The position numbers and the translations under genes were made by a program. From Eubacteriales bacterium (GTDB taxonomy: Bacteria; Bacillota; Clostridia; Oscillospirales; CAG-272), in the NCBI GenBank assembly GCA_045611685.1, contig JAZKXO010000079.1, positions 68,551-132,550 of the forward strand: 64,000 bases of DNA, given 5' to 3'. The notes below the pieces were generated by a model. The model saw nothing but the letters and a program-made list of their open reading frames with translations, was not told the DNA's origin and did no database searches. Positions 77 through 54,304 of the stretch are shown piece after piece (the stretch's first letter is position 1; each line of letters starts with the position of its first letter).

Positions 77-982
77 ATGCGTGTAAAGAAAATAGATATG
101 CACGCTCACGCACTCATAAGTCGCGGCATCATGAATCCGCGCAGAGACTATTGGCCGCTTCCCGAGGAGCTGCTCCCCATGTACGATGAACTGGGCATCG
201 AACGCGCTGTCCTCATGCCTCTTATTACAACCGAATACTACTTTGAGCCAACGACCAACCGTGAGATAAAGGCCATCGTAGAAAAATACCCCGATCGGTT
301 CAGTTGGTTTTGCAACATTGATCCGAGGCAGGGTAAACACTCTCCTATGACAGATTTTACCCCTGTTTTGGAATACTACAAATCCATCGGCGCAAAAGGT
401 GTCGGTGAGGTGTGCGCAAATCTCTATTTCGACGATCCGATGACGATGAACCTGTTCGCCCACTGCGAAAAGTGCAATATGCCCATTACCTTCCATATTG
501 GAAAGTTGGGCGGCGACTACGGACTTGTGGACGAGGCAGGACTCCCCCGCCTTGAAAAAGTGCTTAACGCATTTCCCAACCTGAAGCTGATCGGACACTC
601 CCAAAAATTCTGGGCCGAGATCAGCGGTGAGATCAACACGGAAAACAGAAACGCTTACCCAAGCGGCAAGGTTGTCCCCGGCGGACGCGTTGTTGAGCTA
701 CTCCGCCGCTATCCCAATATGTATGCCGATATATCCGCCGACAGCGGCGCGACCGCAATCATGCGCGACCCGGAATTCGGATACAAGTTCCTGGAAGAAT
801 TCAAAGATAAGCTTTTCTTCGGCACAGACATCTGCACGTCAGACATAAATCGCGCGAAAAAAGCAACTCTCTGGAAGCTCAGTGCCTTCCTTGACGATGC
901 TGTTGACAACGGATTTATCACCGAAGACGCCTATTACAAGATCTGCCGCGGAAACGCGGAAAAGCTTTTTGATTTGAAATAA
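77..982 (+). CDS. amidohydrolase-family (TIM-barrel metal-dependent hydrolase) protein
   Basis: 301-aa ORF with GGAGG 8 nt upstream of the ATG. The N-terminal KIDMHAHAL metal-ligand motif and overall layout fit amidohydrolase 2-type proteins. Confidence 0.7.
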   Translation: MRVKKIDMHAHALISRGIMNPRRDYWPLPEELLPMYDELGIERAVLMPLITTEYYFEPTTNREIKAIVEKYPDRFSWFCNIDPRQGKHSPMTDFTPVLEYYKSIGAKGVGEVCANLYFDDPMTMNLFAHCEKCNMPITFHIGKLGGDYGLVDEAGLPRLEKVLNAFPNLKLIGHSQKFWAEISGEINTENRNAYPSGKVVPGGRVVELLRRYPNMYADISADSGATAIMRDPEFGYKFLEEFKDKLFFGTDICTSDINRAKKATLWKLSAFLDDAVDNGFITEDAYYKICRGNAEKLFDLK

Positions 983-1017: not shown

Positions 1018-2358
1018 ATGGAAAAACTCGCTTATCTTGGCGGAAACCCGATTCCGAAAGTAGAAATGCCCCAGGATATTCTCAAATGGCCGATTATAAC
1101 AGATGAGGACAAAGCCGCCATTATGGACGTAGTGGAGCGCAACGCGTTCTCCGGCACGGACATCACCGAAGCATTCGAAAAGGAATTTGCCGAGTGGCTC
1201 GGTGCACCCTACTGTATTGCCACCTGCAACGGCACGTTCGCACTATTTGCCGCTATGTTCGGTGTAGGCCTCGGTGCGGGCGATGAGATCATCTGTCCTT
1301 CAAAAACGTATTGGGCCAGCTGTCTTTCCGCACAGCTTCTCGGTGCATCCGTCGTTTTTGCGAACATCAATCCAAACACACTCGGCATCGACCCCGCCGA
1401 TTTGGAGCGCTGTCTCAGCCCCCGCACCAAAGCAATTATGGTAGTACATTATTTTGCTCATCCCGTTGATATGGATCCTATTATGGCGTTTGCAAAAAAA
1501 CACAATCTGAAAGTAATTGAAGACGTGTCCCACGCGCAAGGCGGCATGTACAAGGGACGCCGCCTCGGCACGATCGGCGACGTTGGCGCTATGTCGCTTA
1601 TGAGTGGCAAATCCTTTGCCGCCGGCGAGCTCGGCGCTTTGCTTACGAGCGATGTTGAGATCTACGAACGCGCGCTGGCTTTCACGCACTATGAGCGCAA
1701 CGATCTCAAGCATATCGTTCACACTGATTATCTGAAACCCTTTGTCGGTCTTCCGCTCAGCGGACTTAAGGGACGCGTAAACCAAACCTGCTCCGCCGCC
1801 GCACGCGTACAGATGAAATATTACGATGAACGCACCGCGGAAATCCGCCGCTGTATGAACTACTTTTTTGATCAGTTAGAAGGTCTTCCAGGCATTCATC
1901 CCGTACGCGTTGACGAAAGCGAAGGCTCCAATATGGGAGGTTGGTACGTACCTTGTATGACCTACCACGCAGAAGAACTTGGCGGACTTGATATCCATAC
2001 GTTCTGCGCCGCCGTAAAGGCAGAGATCGGACTCGCTATCCGCCCCTCCGGTAACTTCCCGCTTCACAACCACAATCTCTTCAAGAAATTCGATCTGACG
2101 CATATCGGCAAGCCCACGCGCATCGCTTTCACAGATCGCGACGTACGCGAAACGGATGCAGGTCTTACGCCCACTGAAGAGGTTAAGATGATTTCCGTAC
2201 CGTGGTTCAAGAAGTTCTATCCCGAGTACATCGATTATGTTGCCGCCGGCTACAAAAAAGTTGCTCTCAACGCAAAGCAGTTGATTGGTGAACAGGCGGA
2301 AAAGAATACCGAAGGCTATTGGTTCGGTACCGCAAACGAAAAAATGAAAGATAACTAA
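1018..2358 (+). CDS. DegT/DnrJ/EryC1/StrS-family PLP-dependent aminotransferase
   Basis: 446 aa with RBS AGGAGA. It has the typical N-terminus (LAYLGGNP..., FEKEFAEWLGAPYCIATCNGTFAL) and a PLP-lysine region, SLMSGKSFAAGELG. Confidence 0.8.
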   Translation: MEKLAYLGGNPIPKVEMPQDILKWPIITDEDKAAIMDVVERNAFSGTDITEAFEKEFAEWLGAPYCIATCNGTFALFAAMFGVGLGAGDEIICPSKTYWASCLSAQLLGASVVFANINPNTLGIDPADLERCLSPRTKAIMVVHYFAHPVDMDPIMAFAKKHNLKVIEDVSHAQGGMYKGRRLGTIGDVGAMSLMSGKSFAAGELGALLTSDVEIYERALAFTHYERNDLKHIVHTDYLKPFVGLPLSGLKGRVNQTCSAAARVQMKYYDERTAEIRRCMNYFFDQLEGLPGIHPVRVDESEGSNMGGWYVPCMTYHAEELGGLDIHTFCAAVKAEIGLAIRPSGNFPLHNHNLFKKFDLTHIGKPTRIAFTDRDVRETDAGLTPTEEVKMISVPWFKKFYPEYIDYVAAGYKKVALNAKQLIGEQAEKNTEGYWFGTANEKMKDN

Positions 2359-2360
2359 CA

Positions 2361-2392
2361 AAAAGATGCCGCGCTCGCGGCATCTTTTTTAT
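2361..2392 (+). terminator. rho-independent terminator after the aminotransferase gene
   Basis: Stem GATGCCGC (2365-2372) pairs with GCGGCATC (2377-2384) around a 4-nt loop, followed by T6. Confidence 0.8.
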
Positions 2393-2429
2393 TACGTCGG
2401 CGCATACACTCTCTTCAGGAGGTGTAATA

Positions 2430-2572
2430 TGCCAGAGCAGAATTCTTTTATAACAAACGTTTTCAAAACGGAGGACGAAACAGAGAGAACGCGTCTCTAT
2501 ACAGAAAAATGGTGTAAGCTTTTGAAAAAAGCATTGGCGGACACATATGATCCGCAAATACATTATGAGTAA
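2430..2572 (+). CDS. small hypothetical protein (47 aa) translationally coupled to the serine recombinase; candidate accessory or directionality factor
   Basis: AGGAGG lies 6 nt upstream of ATG 2430. The product is MPEQNSFITNVFKTEDETERTRLYTEKWCKLLKKALADTYDPQIHYE. Its stop codon overlaps the recombinase start (ATGAGTAA at 2565-2572). Confidence 0.45.
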
Positions 2573-4124
2573 GCAAAAGGCGGCGCTTTACTGTCGCCTC
2601 TCCGAAGAAGACAAAAAGAAAGAATTCGAATCTGATGATTCACAAAGCATTCAAAACCAAAAAGCCATGCTCACAGAATATGCGAACCGTGAAGGTTGGG
2701 AGATCTACGGCATCTACAGCGACGACGACTACGCGGGCGCCGATCGGAAACGCCCCGCCTTCAACCGACTTTTGCGAGATGCAGAGGCACGGCGTTTCGA
2801 TATCATACTCTGTAAAACGCAGTCTCGTTTTACACGAGAGATGGAACTGGTGGAAAAATACATACACGGTCTCTTTCCGCTATGGGGAATCCGATTCGTG
2901 AGCATCGTTGATAACGCGGACACCGCCAACCGCGGAAACAAAAAATCCCGACAGATAAACGGTCTTGTGAATGAATGGTATCTTGAGGATATGTCGGACA
3001 ACATACGTGACGTGCTCACCAGCCGGCGTAAAAACGGTTTTCATATCGGCTCATTTGCGCTCTACGGCTACAAAAAGGACCCCGAAAAAAAAGGACATCT
3101 CATCATCGATGCCGAAGCCGCCGCCGTGGTACGGGAGGTTTTTACGCTGTTTTCAAAAGGCTACGGAAAAACGGCGATCGCACGCATTCTGAACGATCGT
3201 GCCATACCGAATCCGACTGAATACAAGCGTCTCTCGGGGATGAACTACAAACAGCCGAACGGGAAAACAGGCACGCTTTGGAAATACAGCGCGATCTCCG
3301 ATATGCTGAAAAACGAGATGTACATCGGGAACATGGTACAGGGAAAATACGGAAGCATTTCCTACAAAACAAAAATAAACCACTCTCGCCCGCGTAATGA
3401 ATGGATAGTCGTAAAAGGGACGCACGAGCCGATTATCGACATGACGCTTTGGGAGAAAGTGCAAGCCATACTCTCAGAGAAAACGAAGCCGTTCGGGAGC
3501 GGTACCGTGGGCGTTTTCGCAGGGATTGCGCGGTGCACCGCGTGCGGCTATACACTTCGCTCTTCCCAAAACCGCGGGCGTCGGTATCTCTCTTGTCCCA
3601 ATCGCTATATCGCCAAGGATGCATGCACCGGTGCTTTCATCTCCGCTGATAGGCTTGAACAAACCGTTCTCCACGCCATTCACACGTTTAATGAAAAATA
3701 TCTTGATCGAGAGATGCTCTTGGAAAACGCCCAACTAAGAGACGAAAGCGACACCGAAAAAACGCGTCTCCGTGCAGATGCTGATCGGTACGAAAAAAAG
3801 ATCCGCGAAAATGAATCGGTTTTGCAAAAGCTGTATCTTGATCGGGTAAACGGAATCGTTCGTGAAGAGGATTTCATCCTGCTTTCCAAGAGCTTCGCCG
3901 AAGAGAAGGCGCGATTTGAAAAACTTGCCGCCAAAAGCAAAGAAGCACTCGAGCACATAAAGGCTGGGGCCGCCGCCCGTGATTTTGATACGGAGATTAA
4001 AACTATGCTCAACGTTTCAAGTCTCGAGCGCGAGACGGCCTTAGTATTGATTGACCGTATATCCGTAGGGCAGCGCATTGCCGGCACTAGAAACGTACCT
4101 ATCACGATCTGTTGGAATTTCTAA
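2565..4124 (+). CDS. large serine recombinase (resolvase/invertase N-terminal domain, recombinase domain, zinc ribbon and coiled coil)
   Basis: The N-terminus AALYCRLSEED carries the catalytic Ser, followed by DIILCKTQSRFTRE. A central recombinase domain is followed by a Cys cluster (CTACGY...SCPNRY...C) and a long charged C-terminal helix. Start at ATG 2565 (MSKQK) is preferred over 2547. Confidence 0.9.
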   Translation: MSKQKAALYCRLSEEDKKKEFESDDSQSIQNQKAMLTEYANREGWEIYGIYSDDDYAGADRKRPAFNRLLRDAEARRFDIILCKTQSRFTREMELVEKYIHGLFPLWGIRFVSIVDNADTANRGNKKSRQINGLVNEWYLEDMSDNIRDVLTSRRKNGFHIGSFALYGYKKDPEKKGHLIIDAEAAAVVREVFTLFSKGYGKTAIARILNDRAIPNPTEYKRLSGMNYKQPNGKTGTLWKYSAISDMLKNEMYIGNMVQGKYGSISYKTKINHSRPRNEWIVVKGTHEPIIDMTLWEKVQAILSEKTKPFGSGTVGVFAGIARCTACGYTLRSSQNRGRRYLSCPNRYIAKDACTGAFISADRLEQTVLHAIHTFNEKYLDREMLLENAQLRDESDTEKTRLRADADRYEKKIRENESVLQKLYLDRVNGIVREEDFILLSKSFAEEKARFEKLAAKSKEALEHIKAGAAARDFDTEIKTMLNVSSLERETALVLIDRISVGQRIAGTRNVPITICWNF

Positions 4125-4128
4125 AGGT

Positions 4129-4347
4129 TGCTTTTATAAAGGCGCAGCAGAGCAAAAGGCGCGCGTAACCTACGACAATCTTCTTCGACTCATTGACGAT
4201 CCGGACGTACGCGAGCCGCTGAAATTCCTGCGTGAGCGTGAGGTTGTTCACTATCAGCGTTTCGGAGATGCACTCCGTATTGCGAAGGACAGCATGGATT
4301 CAAAAAACTTCTACGCATTCAACCCCGCATACAACCCGTGCAAGTGA
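4129..4347 (+). pseudogene. cotJC: 3' fragment (C-terminal third) of a cotJC / manganese-catalase-family spore coat gene, separated from its 5' part by the element
   Basis: Translation FYKGAAEQKARVTYDNLLRLIDDPDVREPLKFLREREVVHYQRFGDAL... aligns by eye with B. subtilis CotJC ...LYEDIAAEEKARATYQWLIDISDDPDLNDSLRFLREREIVHSMRFREAV. There is no start codon or RBS and no N-terminal di-Mn ligand region. Confidence 0.75.
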
Positions 4348-4351
4348 AAAT

Positions 4352-4380
4352 AAAACGGATGCCTTTCGGCATCCGTTTTT
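4352..4380. terminator. bidirectional rho-independent terminator between the cotJC fragment (+) and yebC (-)
   Basis: AAAACGGATGCC-TTTC-GGCATCCGTTTT is a perfect 12-bp stem with A/T runs on both sides. Confidence 0.85.
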
Positions 4381-4383
4381 CTT

Positions 4384-5115
4384 TCATGCATCTGCATTTT
4401 CCCAGTTGTGGTAGATCTCGCTGATATCGTCGGAATCCTCGAGATGCTCAATGAGGAGGTTCATGTTTTTGATATCCTCTTCACTGGTAAGCGTTACGTA
4501 TGTGCTAGGGATCTTGTCTTTTTCCGCAGATTCGATCGCGTAGCCCGCCTCGGCGAGTGCATCACGCACAGCATACAGATCAGAAACCTCGGTCAGGATT
4601 TCAAACGCATCCTCGTCTGCGGTAAAATCAGCGGCACCGGCTTCGAGGGCTGTCTCCATGAGCGCATCCTCATCCACACCGTCTTCGCGGAGGATCACGA
4701 TCACGCCCTTATCCTCGAACATGAACGACACGCAACCACTCTGGCCGAGGTTTCCGCCGTACTTATCAAAGTAGTGGCGTACGTCGGAGGCAGTACGGTT
4801 GCGGCTGTCGGTTGCGGCTTCCACGATCACGGCAACACCGGACGGGCCGTATCCCTCGTATACGATCTCCTCGTACTCAACTGCGTCTGCACTGCTTGCT
4901 TTCTTGATCGCGCGCTCAATATTATCGTTCGGCACGTTGTTCGCTTTCGCTTTTACGATCAACTCGCGCAGTTTGCTGTTGCCGGACGGATCGGGGCCGC
5001 CCTCACGAACGGCGATGGCGATCTCCTTACCGATTTTGGTAAAGACTTTTGCTTTCTGCGCATCGGTCTTTGCTTTTTTGTTTTTAATATTATTCCATTT
5101 GCTGTGTCCAGACAT
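4384..5115 (-). CDS. yebC: YebC/PmpR-family DNA-binding transcriptional regulator
   Basis: 243 aa with the family's N-terminal signature, MSGHSKWNNIKNKKAKTDAQKAKVFTKIGKEI. Confidence 0.95.
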   Translation of the reverse strand: MSGHSKWNNIKNKKAKTDAQKAKVFTKIGKEIAIAVREGGPDPSGNSKLRELIVKAKANNVPNDNIERAIKKASSADAVEYEEIVYEGYGPSGVAVIVEAATDSRNRTASDVRHYFDKYGGNLGQSGCVSFMFEDKGVIVILREDGVDEDALMETALEAGAADFTADEDAFEILTEVSDLYAVRDALAEAGYAIESAEKDKIPSTYVTLTSEEDIKNMNLLIEHLEDSDDISEIYHNWENADA

Positions 5116-30719: not shown

Positions 30720-32231
30720 TTACAGAATGATGCAGATGAGCCCGCCGCTCCCCTCGTTGATGATGCGGGACAGCGTTTCGCCGAGTTTCAGCCGTGCGTC
30801 CGGAGGCATATGGGAAAGTTTCGCGTGCAGTCCATCGTTCACCAGCTCATAGAGCGATTTCCCGAAAAGATTGGATTCCCAGATCTGTTTCGGATCTTCT
30901 TCGAAATCACGGAGAAGGTTTTTCACCAGTTCCTCCGACTGCTGCTCCGTCCCCACGACGGGATTCAGTTCCGTCTCGATAGATGCACGGATCATATGAA
31001 CAGAAGGCGCAGATGCACGGAGACGTACGCCGTACCCACCCGCTTGGCGTACGATTTCGGGTTCCTCGAGGGTGAGACTGTCAATATCGGGCATCACGAT
31101 ACCGTAGCCGTTTTCATCCAGTTCGCGGATCGCCTCGGCGTATTTATCGTACGCACGTTTGGCTTCAGTCAAGGTGCGCAAAGCCGAGATCAACTCCCGC
31201 TCGCTTTCCATCTCGATGCCGGTAAGCTCACCGATAATACGGTAGTACAATGCATCGGGCATTGTGAGCGCCGCCTCCACACAACCGGTACCGAGATTGA
31301 TGTCGAAGAGGCGTACTTCTGCTTTCCCCTCTCCGCCGCCGGCGGCGATCGCCTCCGTGATAGCAGAAGACAGCGCGTCCCCGTACGCCTCCGCCGCGTC
31401 ACCCACCTTTCCGAGAGCACGCGCCGTGCGAAGCACCGCATCAGAAACGGCGACTCTCAGCCAGTGATCGGCATCCAGTGCGCACATCCAGCCGGGCATA
31501 TGAACGCGGATCTCACGGAGAGGAAACTCCATAAGCACCATACGGAGAATGTGCGCCACATCCTCTTTGTCCATCGTCGTACAGTTGATGAGCGCGACCG
31601 GTGCTTTGTACTTTTCTTCAAGTTCCATGGCGAGTTTTTCCGCTTCGGGTGAGGCGGGATTCTGAGAATTCAGAATAACCGCAAACGGCTTTCCGATCGC
31701 AGCGAGCTCGCGCGCCACCCTCTCTTCCGCCAAAAGATAATTCTCTCTCGGGATATCCCCAAAGGAGCCGTCCGTCGTTACGAGAATACCGATCGTAGAA
31801 TGCTCGTCAATGACCTTTCTGGTGCCTGTTTCCGCCGCCTCTTCAAACGGAAGGGGCTCCTTTGACCAAGGGGTATGTACCATTCTCACAGCGCCGTTTT
31901 CGGTATCGCCGAGCGCATCGGGCACCATATATCCGACGCAGTCGATCATCCGTACGTTGACGCGGCCGTGCTCCCCGACCGGGATCTGCACCGCTTCGTC
32001 GGGGATGAATTTCGGCTCGGTGGTCATAACAGTGCGTCCACCCGCACTTTGCGGAAGCTCGTCGCGGGCACGCGTGCGATCATGCTCCCCCTGTATGTTG
32101 GGGATGACCACCGTCTCCATAAATTTTTTGATAAACGTGGATTTTCCCGTCCGCACGGGGCCTACCACACCAACGTATATGTCTCCGCCGGTGCGCGCCG
32201 CGATATCCTGATAGATGTCTTGATTTGTCAT
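30720..32231 (-). CDS. spoIVA: stage IV sporulation protein A (spore coat morphogenetic ATPase)
   Basis: The product begins MTNQDIYQDIAARTGGDIYVGVVGPVRTGKSTFIKKFME (Walker A). ATG 32231 follows GGAGGA. Confidence 0.95.
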   Translation of the reverse strand: MTNQDIYQDIAARTGGDIYVGVVGPVRTGKSTFIKKFMETVVIPNIQGEHDRTRARDELPQSAGGRTVMTTEPKFIPDEAVQIPVGEHGRVNVRMIDCVGYMVPDALGDTENGAVRMVHTPWSKEPLPFEEAAETGTRKVIDEHSTIGILVTTDGSFGDIPRENYLLAEERVARELAAIGKPFAVILNSQNPASPEAEKLAMELEEKYKAPVALINCTTMDKEDVAHILRMVLMEFPLREIRVHMPGWMCALDADHWLRVAVSDAVLRTARALGKVGDAAEAYGDALSSAITEAIAAGGGEGKAEVRLFDINLGTGCVEAALTMPDALYYRIIGELTGIEMESERELISALRTLTEAKRAYDKYAEAIRELDENGYGIVMPDIDSLTLEEPEIVRQAGGYGVRLRASAPSVHMIRASIETELNPVVGTEQQSEELVKNLLRDFEEDPKQIWESNLFGKSLYELVNDGLHAKLSHMPPDARLKLGETLSRIINEGSGGLICIIL

Positions 32232-32274
32232 ACCTATTCCTCCGCATATTCGTGATTTCTGATGCTTTTGCTTG

Positions 32275-32303
32275 ATTGTATGCGACAAAGCCGAAAAGTA
32301 TGA
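32275..32303 (-). promoter_or_regulatory. sigma-E-type (mother-cell) promoter upstream of spoIVA
   Basis: The minus strand reads TCATACT, a 14-nt spacer, then CATACAAT. This matches the B. subtilis sigma-E consensus ZHATAXX-N14-CATACAHT. spoIVA is sigma-E dependent in B. subtilis. Confidence 0.6.
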
Positions 32304-53566: not shown

Positions 53567-54304
53567 TCAGATTTTTGTTTCGATCCTGTCCTTCAATCGG
53601 CGGATGATCTTCTTCTCAAGCCTTGAAATGTACGATTGCGAAATGCCCAGCATATCTGCTACCTCTTTCTGCGTCCGCTCTTCCCCACCCGTAAGACCGT
53701 ATCTCAGTTCAATGATGAGCCGCTCCCGCTCGCCGAGCTCGGAAACCGCCGCGCGGATCGTCCGTTCATCCTCGCTCCGCTCGAGATCGCGTCCTACCGT
53801 ATCCTCCTCCGTTCCGATGACGTCCGACAGCAGAAGCTCGTTCCCGTCCCAGTCGATATTGAGCGGCTCGTCAATAGAGACCTCTCCGCGAAGGGAGGAA
53901 TTTTTCCTTATGTACATAAGTATCTCGTTTTCGATGCACCTCGAAGCGTACGTCGCCAGCTTGATCTGCCGTCCCGCCTGGAACGTACGGATCGCCTTGA
54001 TAAGTCCGATCGTGCCGATCGAGATAAGATCCTCGATCCCGATACCGGTGTTCTCAAATTTTCGCGCGATATACACTACAAGCCGGAGATTATGTTCGAT
54101 GAGCTGTGCGGATGCACTTTCGTCCTCCGCAAGGCGGGCGATGGCGTCGGCCTCCTCTTCGGCGGATAGCGGCGGCGGCAGCACCTCCGCGCCGTTGACA
54201 TAGAATGTGCCGTAATCCCCCGCGTTAAGGCAGGCGGTAAGAAGCCGCCCCACAAGCGAGCGGAAATCGCTCATAACCGTTAGAATTCCGTTACTGATAC
54301 GCAT
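53567..54304 (-). CDS. sigE: sporulation sigma factor SigE (pro-sigma-E)
   Basis: A pro-sequence is followed by [17 protein letters not shown], matching the Bacillus YIGGSEALPPPLS. Sigma-70 regions 2 to 4 are present. The gene lies directly downstream of spoIIGA. Confidence 0.9.

Follow-up and report, generated by a model that had tools for sequence, protein, structure and literature searches.

A large serine recombinase gene beside a split cotJC spore coat gene in an Eubacteriales genome: a candidate for repair by developmental excision

A 64,000-nt stretch of DNA from an Eubacteriales bacterium (assembly GCA_045611685.1, contig JAZKXO010000079.1; hereafter the window) was found to contain a complete gene for a large serine recombinase (LSR) followed by the 3' third of cotJC, a spore coat gene of the manganese catalase family. 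The LSR gene (2565-4124, plus strand; stop codon at 4122-4124) codes for 519 aa from ATG 2565. An alternative ATG at 2547 would give 525 aa (open reading frame (ORF) 2547-4124); ATG 2565 is the likely start because of the alignment with relatives and the overlap with a small upstream ORF in ATGAGTAA. Three Pfam domains were matched: Resolvase (residues 12-164, E 5e-22), Recombinase (PF07508, residues 190-312, E 5e-26) and Zn_ribbon_recom (PF13408, residues 324-378, E 3e-10). A DUF4368 match at residues 476-525 was below the cut-off (17.9 vs 25 bits), and orthologs of the protein in loci L002 and L004 list this domain (PF14287) among their precomputed hits. The window LSR also matched the PHROG 95 integrase family (E 9e-98), and all aligned relatives share its motif YCRLSEED, in which the catalytic Ser presumably lies. 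Orthologs that sit beside cotJC in the same way are 63-66% identical to it.

The small ORF (47 aa; 2429-2572, plus strand) has a strong ribosome-binding site of its own, AGGAGGTG, and its stop codon overlaps the LSR start through ATGAGTAA, suggesting that the two genes are translationally coupled. It is a diverged member of a family of 45-55 aa proteins (..C.SVFKSGE.TT.K.QFTKKWIELINRLEKNK..), which tblastn placed directly upstream of the LSR in 78 of 80 related genome loci. No Pfam, NCBIfam or PHROGs match was detected for the small ORF, which is a candidate directionality or regulatory factor.

A start-less piece of cotJC begins 20 bp beyond the LSR stop codon. It comprises 67 codons (AAEQKAR...NPCK) and a stop (4144-4347, plus strand), and its translation from 4144 reads AAEQKARVTYDNLLRLIDDPDVREPLKFLREREVVHYQRFGDAL.... 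The ORF containing it (4078-4347) matched the Pfam Mn_catalase profile with 43.7 bits (cut-off 27; E 2e-11), at profile positions 148-198 of 284 only, and in tblastn a B. subtilis CotJC probe aligned with its residues 133-189 to 4144-4314. After the LSR stop the fragment has no in-frame ATG, and the sole start available to it is a TTG inside the LSR gene. The junction itself (4126-4159) reads AGGTTGCTTTTATAAAGGC-GCAGCAGA-GCAAAAGG. Its first segment (4126-4143, plus strand) is the putative element-side arm of attR and corresponds to the consensus GTTGTTCTTATATGATT that precedes the core in 61 loci of the family. The second segment (4144-4151, plus strand) is the 8-bp shared core that ends the 5' half of cotJC, and begins the 3' half, in loci possessing both. 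The window junction thus fits the family pattern with a diverged arm, the reverse complement of which is absent elsewhere in the window. Because the arms are symmetric around the core, its last two bases, GA (4150-4151), are presumed to be the 2-bp crossover, which falls within the Glu codon GAG; we take this conserved Glu to be a di-manganese ligand of manganese catalases. Judged by these features, positions 2396-4151 represent the recombinase (attR-side) end of an integrated element that splits cotJC at a conserved Glu codon.

A sequence-only reading of this DNA, made before the analysis, had recognized the complete recombinase with its stop codon and the last third of CotJC, and the profile and tblastn matches bear out both. 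It had placed the beginning of the fragment at about 4129 and the crossover within 4105-4140. The fragment is indeed in another frame and start-less, but its supposed first residues, FYKG, belong to the element arm and cotJC begins at 4144; likewise, the core lies near the predicted place but approximately 5-10 bp further to the right.

We then scanned one genome per GTDB species, using an alignment of three LSRs as the query, and detected at least 562 related LSR loci in these species-representative genomes. The 80 LSRs retained from these are all 62-66% identical to the window protein, and their hosts include Lachnospiraceae, Oscillospiraceae, Ruminococcaceae, Anaerotignum, Anaerotruncus, Parablautia, Clostridium fessum and others; named carriers are, for example, Parablautia intestinalis D8-82, Anaerotignum lactatifermentans DSM 14214 and Anaerotruncus colihominis JM4-15. 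At 76 of the 80 fetched loci the LSR abuts cotJC at the identical codon (residue 132-135), which points to a single spot in this gene, ..EDL|AAEQKAR.., as the attachment site of the family. Relatives thus do not show the fragment on its own, without an element, which the sequence-only reading had named as the sign of simple gene decay. The single insertion codon also speaks against relaxed, multi-target insertion, and the family is therefore not classed as multi-targeting. When junctions were counted over the genome loci together with the window and two metagenome loci, the cotJC 3' part followed the LSR at a distance of 25-270 bp in 61 loci, and in 15 what came after the LSR was the terminus of the cotJC 5' part, which lies on the opposite strand and breaks at the same residue. 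In opposite-strand loci (L013-L019, L021-L023, L025, L026, L039, L046, L058; L085-L099), the LSR gene is flipped relative to a nearly palindromic attachment site. Eight loci in this count fit neither class, several of them being attP-like junctions between tandem copies.

The same break was evident from the side of the coat protein. A database search with a 72-aa fragment gave 2046 hits, the best 120 of which were all 67-119 aa long. About 90 of these 120 break directly before AAEQKAR, and the residues ahead of the break come from the element, being similar to each other and not CotJC-like (CCFYKI, CEYVI, CSYKI, MI). About 25 of the 120 are continuous across the site (..HEDLAAEQKAR..) and represent the empty-site alleles for which the sequence-only reading had suggested looking. 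In addition, two long metagenome contigs contain an LSR of 519-521 aa directly upstream of the fragment, in differing chromosomal neighbourhoods.

Both halves of cotJC were found in 13 loci, on one strand and in direct orientation, 4.1-10.7 kb apart, in the order cotJA-cotJB-cotJC5' | insert | small ORF-LSR | cotJC3'. A 5' fragment at the far end of a contiguous insert, as predicted from the window alone, is thus found in relatives. Since cotJB, and in most of these loci also cotJA, lies ahead of the 5' half, the target is the true coat operon. The left junctions read ..GAGGATATG-GCAGCAGA-TGGGGCGATTTTGTAAGAACAAC.. and the right junctions ..GTTGTTCTTATATGATT-GCAGCAGA-GCAAAAAGC..; a full arm-core-arm site in relatives is GTTGTTCTTATATGATT-GCAGCAGA-TGGGGCGATTTTGTAAGAACAAC, in which each element-side arm repeats the other in inverted form. 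This is the usual anatomy of serine-integrase sites, which span about 40-50 bp and have imperfect inverted arms on either side of a short identical core. Joining the halves in silico at the core, also proposed in the sequence-only reading, restored an uninterrupted CotJC ORF of 183-202 aa in 9 of 9 loci tested, and the one rejoined ORF that was checked matched Mn_catalase over positions 1-198 of 284 (E 7e-47). In six loci (L047, L052, L055, L068, L075 and L081), the CotJC match of the 3' fragment stops at about residue 175; a rejoined ORF of this type ends with ..QRFGEANREDCSK (183 aa), which may be either a C-terminal variant or a further break. Sites of the attP-like, arm-core-arm form were observed after some LSR genes (L011:11549-11640, L034 and L079; GTTGTTCTTACATTGTCGTACCATCTGCTGCAATCATGTAAGAACAAC). 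L011 has two elements in tandem between the cotJC halves, and the site in L079 may come from a tandem copy or an assembled circle.

These observations suggest that the split cotJC is rebuilt by developmental excision during sporulation, to which we assign a probability of roughly 65%. A very different possibility is that the 3' fragment has a function of its own as a small protein made through read-through of the LSR gene, or that the LSR inverts rather than deletes the intervening DNA. The element arm does provide an in-frame ATG in many relatives (..ATGATTGCAGCAGAG.., giving MIAAEQ), and the orientation of a 5' half lying outside the window is left free. However, such an ATG is lacking in the window and is explicable in relatives by the likeness of the arm to ..GATATGGCAGCA.. 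of the 5' half beside the core; a 57-residue piece of a helical-bundle catalase would be unlikely to fold by itself, and the halves are in direct orientation in all 13 loci that have both. We regard this possibility as very improbable.

Evidence that the fragment is maintained came from a sister lineage. L043, an Eubacteriales metagenome-assembled genome (JAZPZY010000043.1), has the identical insertion point and the same yebC-argS-prs synteny onward from it. Beside its small ORF and LSR gene, at the matching place, are an amidohydrolase gene (74% aa identity) and a DegT-type gene (84%), whose window counterparts are located at 77-982 (plus strand; Pfam Amidohydro_2) and 1018-2358 (plus strand; DegT/DnrJ-type aminotransferase, Pfam DegT_DnrJ_EryC1). 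The two cotJC fragments are 97% identical in aa and 85% in nt sequence, with pS 0.63 and dN/dS 0.009; the corresponding dN/dS values are 0.025 for yebC, 0.026 for prs, 0.044 for argS and 0.062 for the DegT gene. The shared neighbours show the same degree of divergence as host genes; the two lineages therefore most likely separated after cotJC had been split, and the fragment has therefore probably been under strong selection while apart from its 5' part. The LSR ORFs are intact in both lineages and are 65% identical (pN 0.23, pS saturated), and the two proteins are weakly each other's closest relatives.

These data bear on the possibility that the locus is a stranded remnant: rearrangement would have removed or displaced the left end and the 5' half, leaving only the LSR and attR and no way of restoring cotJC. 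Consistent with such a remnant, no 5' half lies within the 4 kb available in the window or the 10 kb in L043, the neighbours look chromosomal, and the promoter and arm in the window are degenerate relative to the family. A stranded gene would be hard to reconcile with a dN/dS of 0.009 at near-saturated synonymous sites, with an LSR gene and small ORF that are intact in both lineages, and with a core, GCAGCAGA, kept perfectly in the window and L043. We consider a remnant improbable, and return to excision as the preferred explanation.

The region upstream of the small ORF was consistent with expression in the mother cell. A composite motif, gtAATAa-tGgACatGC...-CATAta.T (kmATAnn-N14-16-CATAnnnT), was present in 52 of 74 unique upstream regions and in 1 of 296 equal-size control windows, a count that covers related sequences and measures conservation, not independent probability. 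The box GGAC(A/T)(A/T)GC was found in the promoter spacer in 50 of 74 loci and resembles the SpoIIID consensus TAGGACAAGC (PMC11180830). By consensus resemblance, the family promoter is sigma-E/SpoIIID-like. The window has a candidate promoter at 2380-2410 (plus strand), with the -35 element GCATCTT (2380-2386), a 16-nt spacer and the -10 element CATACACT (2403-2410), the last agreeing at 7 of 8 positions with the -10 element of the window spoIVA. L043 keeps CATATACT and a GGACAGT box. The spoIVA gene (30720-32288, minus strand) is preceded by a -35 element TCATACT (32303-32297), a 14-nt spacer and the -10 element CATACAAT (32282-32275), 44 nt upstream of the probable start; this is the classical form of the B. 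subtilis sigma-E consensus. A GGACAGC box was also observed just upstream of the spoIVA promoter (32313-32307). Two other readings of the conserved promoter were rejected: for sigma-K, the conserved AC is only 11 nt from CATA, compared with a required spacing of 16-17 nt, and for sigma-A, most -10 variants (CATACGCT, CATAGGCT) are not TATAAT-like. No composite pattern was found upstream of cotJA in relatives, so that spoIVA is the one internal control. The B. subtilis recombinase gene spoIVCA depends on sigma-E and SpoIIID. Likewise, the directionality factor of the C. difficile skin element, CD1234, depends on both regulators (PMC5025042).

In the proposed mechanism, the 5' two-thirds of cotJC, together with cotJA and cotJB, would lie beyond the left edge of the window, at the far end of a large old insert that separates the halves by more than 4 kb in the window and more than 10 kb in L043. 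The missing half would be expected to end with ..GA(T/C)(C/T)TNGCNGCAGA, and the arm after it should be more or less an inverted AGGTTGCTTTTATAAAGGC. The small ORF-LSR operon would be transcribed in the mother cell from a sigma-E-type promoter, assisted by SpoIIID in most members of the family, and the LSR would recombine attL with attR. The insert would then leave as a circle and cotJC would be restored for coat assembly, while the spore would retain the interrupted copy. The conserved small ORF may set the direction or timing of this reaction.

The family as a whole has a mobile character. LSR genes that are 94-99.5% identical in nt sequence adjoin cotJC fragments of only 61-76% identity, and LSR similarity is uncorrelated with similarity of the host fragments (r = 0.04). 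Since near-identical LSRs occur in unrelated hosts, the family appears to be horizontally mobile. By their gene content, the elements targeting cotJC are not prophages: some are small cargo cassettes, others islands or conjugative elements of the Tn916 type. At 4.1 kb, L024 is the smallest, and apart from the small ORF and the LSR gene its one gene codes for a Na/Pi cotransporter. L091 is a conjugative element of the Tn916/Tcp type, with a VirB4-like AAA_10 ATPase, TcpC and an NlpC/P60 lysozyme. The element in L002:1-5245 carries an N6/N4 DNA methyltransferase, an AAA_21/DUF4435 ATPase and an HTH/DUF3990 gene, and looks like defence-type cargo; for the ORFs upstream in L100, no Pfam match was found. 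A prophage origin was considered and set aside: the best LSR relative among 50,697 phage records was 44% identical over part of the protein, and hits to the LSR family in IMG/VR, filed there as viral, are integrated conjugative or other elements with cotJC flanks. A second copy of CotJC residues 1-174, with cotJA and cotJB upstream, was observed in L063:2798-3295, 8 kb from the split copy; therefore, paralog redundancy is possible in some hosts.

Mobility raises the alternative that these are ordinary integrative elements for which the conserved spot in cotJC is a safe landing site. Carriers would then lack this CotJC, with paralogs perhaps covering for it, and excision would serve only transfer. 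The horizontal spread of the family and its Tn916/Tcp-type members agree with this scenario, as does DUF4368, which marks a clade of TndX-like transposon recombinases whose namesake alone both integrates and excises. Loss of CotJC could also be tolerable, given the manganese catalase paralogs such as that in L063 and the normal coat made by C. difficile cotCB and cotD mutants. On the other hand, the 3' fragment of an insertion as old as two lineages is under very strong purifying selection, which speaks against this alternative because a permanently silenced gene would not show it, and the promoter of the LSR operon has the mother-cell form CATAnnnT rather than that of sigma-A. We regard the safe-landing-site explanation as unlikely.

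Several observations weigh against developmental excision as the explanation for the window. The N-terminal part of CotJC, already reported as absent by the sequence-only reading, was not found: there was no further CotJC, CotJA or CotJB match anywhere in the 64 kb, no second arm and no attL-like or core-plus-arm site, and in L043 no cotJC 5' half was present within 10 kb of the LSR. The L043 DNA to the left of the LSR contains a two-component system, an AraC regulator, an oxidoreductase, a BNR protein and amidohydrolases. In the window, the DNA to the left of the LSR shows no compositional shift, and in other metagenomes neither an LSR nor cotJC is linked to homologs of the amidohydrolase and DegT genes; the amidohydrolase relatives found by a metagenome scan are at most 57% identical. 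The amidohydrolase and DegT genes may have been carried in by a large old element, or may be part of the chromosome that came to lie between the cotJC halves, and element may be the wrong word for the DNA now separating the halves, because this DNA looks like ordinary metabolic DNA of host composition whose homologs are not element-linked. Tandem accretion, as in L011, is a possible route to a large cargo-laden element. The 65% identity between the window and L043 recombinases means that the module may have been replaced. To these points are added the relatedness of the sequences in the motif count, the assignment of the family promoter by consensus resemblance, and the failure of the window copy to match the composite motif, with its weak -35 element and lack of a SpoIIID-like box.

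Breaks in cotJC were also observed at other positions. A second recurrent break, at about residues 58-63 in the motif ..GTEELAH.., was detected in L016:1975-4014 (minus strand), L045, L046, L067, L078, L092, L093, L096 and L109. In L016, CotJC residues 1-66 and 58-135 are separated by approximately 1.5 kb that encodes a Spo0A_C-domain protein and a 305-aa serine recombinase whose domains are limited to Resolvase and Recombinase. The same site adjoins a phage lysis module (r1t-type holin and C39-like peptidase) in L109. A database search with the middle part of CotJC gave 83 hits, all of them pieces of 54-90 aa; for the 5' half of the window lineage, it gave only fragments from other lineages, the closest being L109, in a different context. 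The closest database relative of the window fragment (P0001, 94% aa identity; L001:1-655) reads through the LSR site but is cut upstream, before MEEIEKSG (about residue 85), where it is joined to an unrelated small ORF. The coverage of this contig is 1x, and the break could be a third site or a chimera.

We tentatively propose, while regarding it as rather doubtful, a broader interpretation in which cotJC of gut Clostridia is a hot spot for programmed rearrangement, broken at two or more codons by unrelated recombinases. The two recurrent codons would lie in metal-ligand motifs: ..AAEQKAR.., used by the 520-aa DUF4368-type LSR, and ..GTEELAH.., used by the 1.5-kb mini-element with its 305-aa recombinase or by a prophage. 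The LSR family would be under sigma-E/SpoIIID control and nevertheless mobile, and would have become domesticated in the lineage of the window. If this were true, the mother-cell chromosome would lose over 10 kb of ordinary metabolic genes at sporulation.

Sporulation genes repaired by excision are a classic form of developmental genome rearrangement, with few experimental examples, mostly from Bacilli and C. difficile. One of them is the skin element in sigK (SpoIVCA in B. subtilis; CD1231 and CD1234 in C. difficile), which, similar to the cotJC family, has an LSR encoded at its edge and splits a mother-cell sporulation gene whose ORF is rejoined by excision. The sigma-E/SpoIIID control of CD1234 is documented, and a promoter of like form is conserved here. 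The skin element differs in being prophage-like and in targeting a sigma factor rather than a coat enzyme gene; moreover, the LSRs of the cotJC family are DUF4368/TndX-like, their small ORF is unrelated to CD1234, and cotJC excision is predicted from sequence. SPbeta in spsM (SprA-SprB), vfbin in spoVFB, vrin in spoVR and yin in yabG follow the same logic of LSR-mediated reconstitution of a sporulation gene, but are prophages or relics with other LSR lineages and targets. The comparison with skin and SPbeta made in the sequence-only reading therefore stands for the split-gene architecture, with relatives that can be joined at the core, and fails for family content, which resembles neither. The closest match in kind to the cargo cassettes of 4.1-10.7 kb is the gin element in gerE of B. 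cereus ATCC 10987 (PMC5595907), which also lacks phage genes and uses a serine recombinase and a short core in a small sporulation gene. The gin element is 28.6 kb long, has three recombinase genes and occurs in one species, whereas the cotJC family has one LSR and a small ORF and occurs in many species.

With respect to the recombinase, TndX (Tn5397) and TnpX (Tn4451) have the DUF4368 C-terminal region that is also listed for LSRs of the cotJC family (L002 and L004), a likeness in domain content. The central target GA is documented for TndX and presumed here, and some members of the cotJC family are likewise of the Tn916 type. TndX needs no separate excision factor. With such a recombinase, it is plausible that one promoter ahead of the LSR operon would be enough of a switch. 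Durrant et al. tied DUF4368 to a multi-targeting TndX-like clade and found it in only 0.73% of site-specific LSRs; in contrast to that description, the cotJC LSR family is strictly site-specific. XisF, which excises the fdxN element in Anabaena heterocysts, is another LSR that frees an interrupted gene of its insert in cells at the end of their differentiation, but in a different phylum and with different target and regulation. The window LSR scored 91 bits against the NCBIfam XisF model (cut-off 375), far below the family threshold, and is not a member.

The sequence-only reading was unsure whether cotJC had been described as a target, and in this respect the literature was ahead of it. A sentence in a preprint (bioRxiv 10.1101/2021.11.22.469490) that cites Abe et al. 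2013 names cotJC as a target together with gerE, yaaH and yhbH, and a preprint by Galperin et al. 2022 reports cotJC interrupted in Laceyella sacchari. These are one-line mentions, in other taxa, of interruption by a phage-, transposon- or skin-like element. Our literature search found no account of the cotJC attachment site, of this recombinase family, of its spread in gut Clostridia or of its regulation, and no paper linking manganese catalase to serine-recombinase integration. Thus, the general idea and cotJC as a target are already known, and the interest lies in the family size, its precision, the candidate regulation and the second insertion site.

The locus points to a very large family in Clostridia of the human and animal gut (Lachnospiraceae, Oscillospiraceae, Ruminococcaceae), which offers a precise attachment site, a compact two-gene recombination module and a conserved candidate mother-cell promoter. 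It is relevant to genome annotation, in which pieces of cotJC are routinely listed as mini-proteins of their own under the name 'manganese catalase family', and to ecology, in that the elements carry cargo, defence and conjugation genes and move between species. As a tool, it adds site specificity to an LSR clade for which multi-targeting has otherwise been described.

The remaining features concern the surroundings of the locus and the host. A terminator hairpin follows the DegT gene (2360-2389; 13-pair GC-rich stem, reported on the minus strand, with the T run on the plus strand) and forms the upstream edge of the small ORF-LSR module. On the other side, a bidirectional terminator (4352-4379, both strands; 12-pair stem) is common to cotJC and a convergent yebC-like gene with YebC domains (4384-5115, minus strand), from which host DNA continues rightward through argS and prs. 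The host is a spore-former, as the sequence-only reading had stated: the window contains spoIVA, matched by TIGR02836 with 670 bits, and a SigE-like gene (53624-54202, minus strand) found with a sequence probe. The probable true start of spoIVA is ATG 32231, which makes the listed ORF of 522 aa approximately 19 codons too long.

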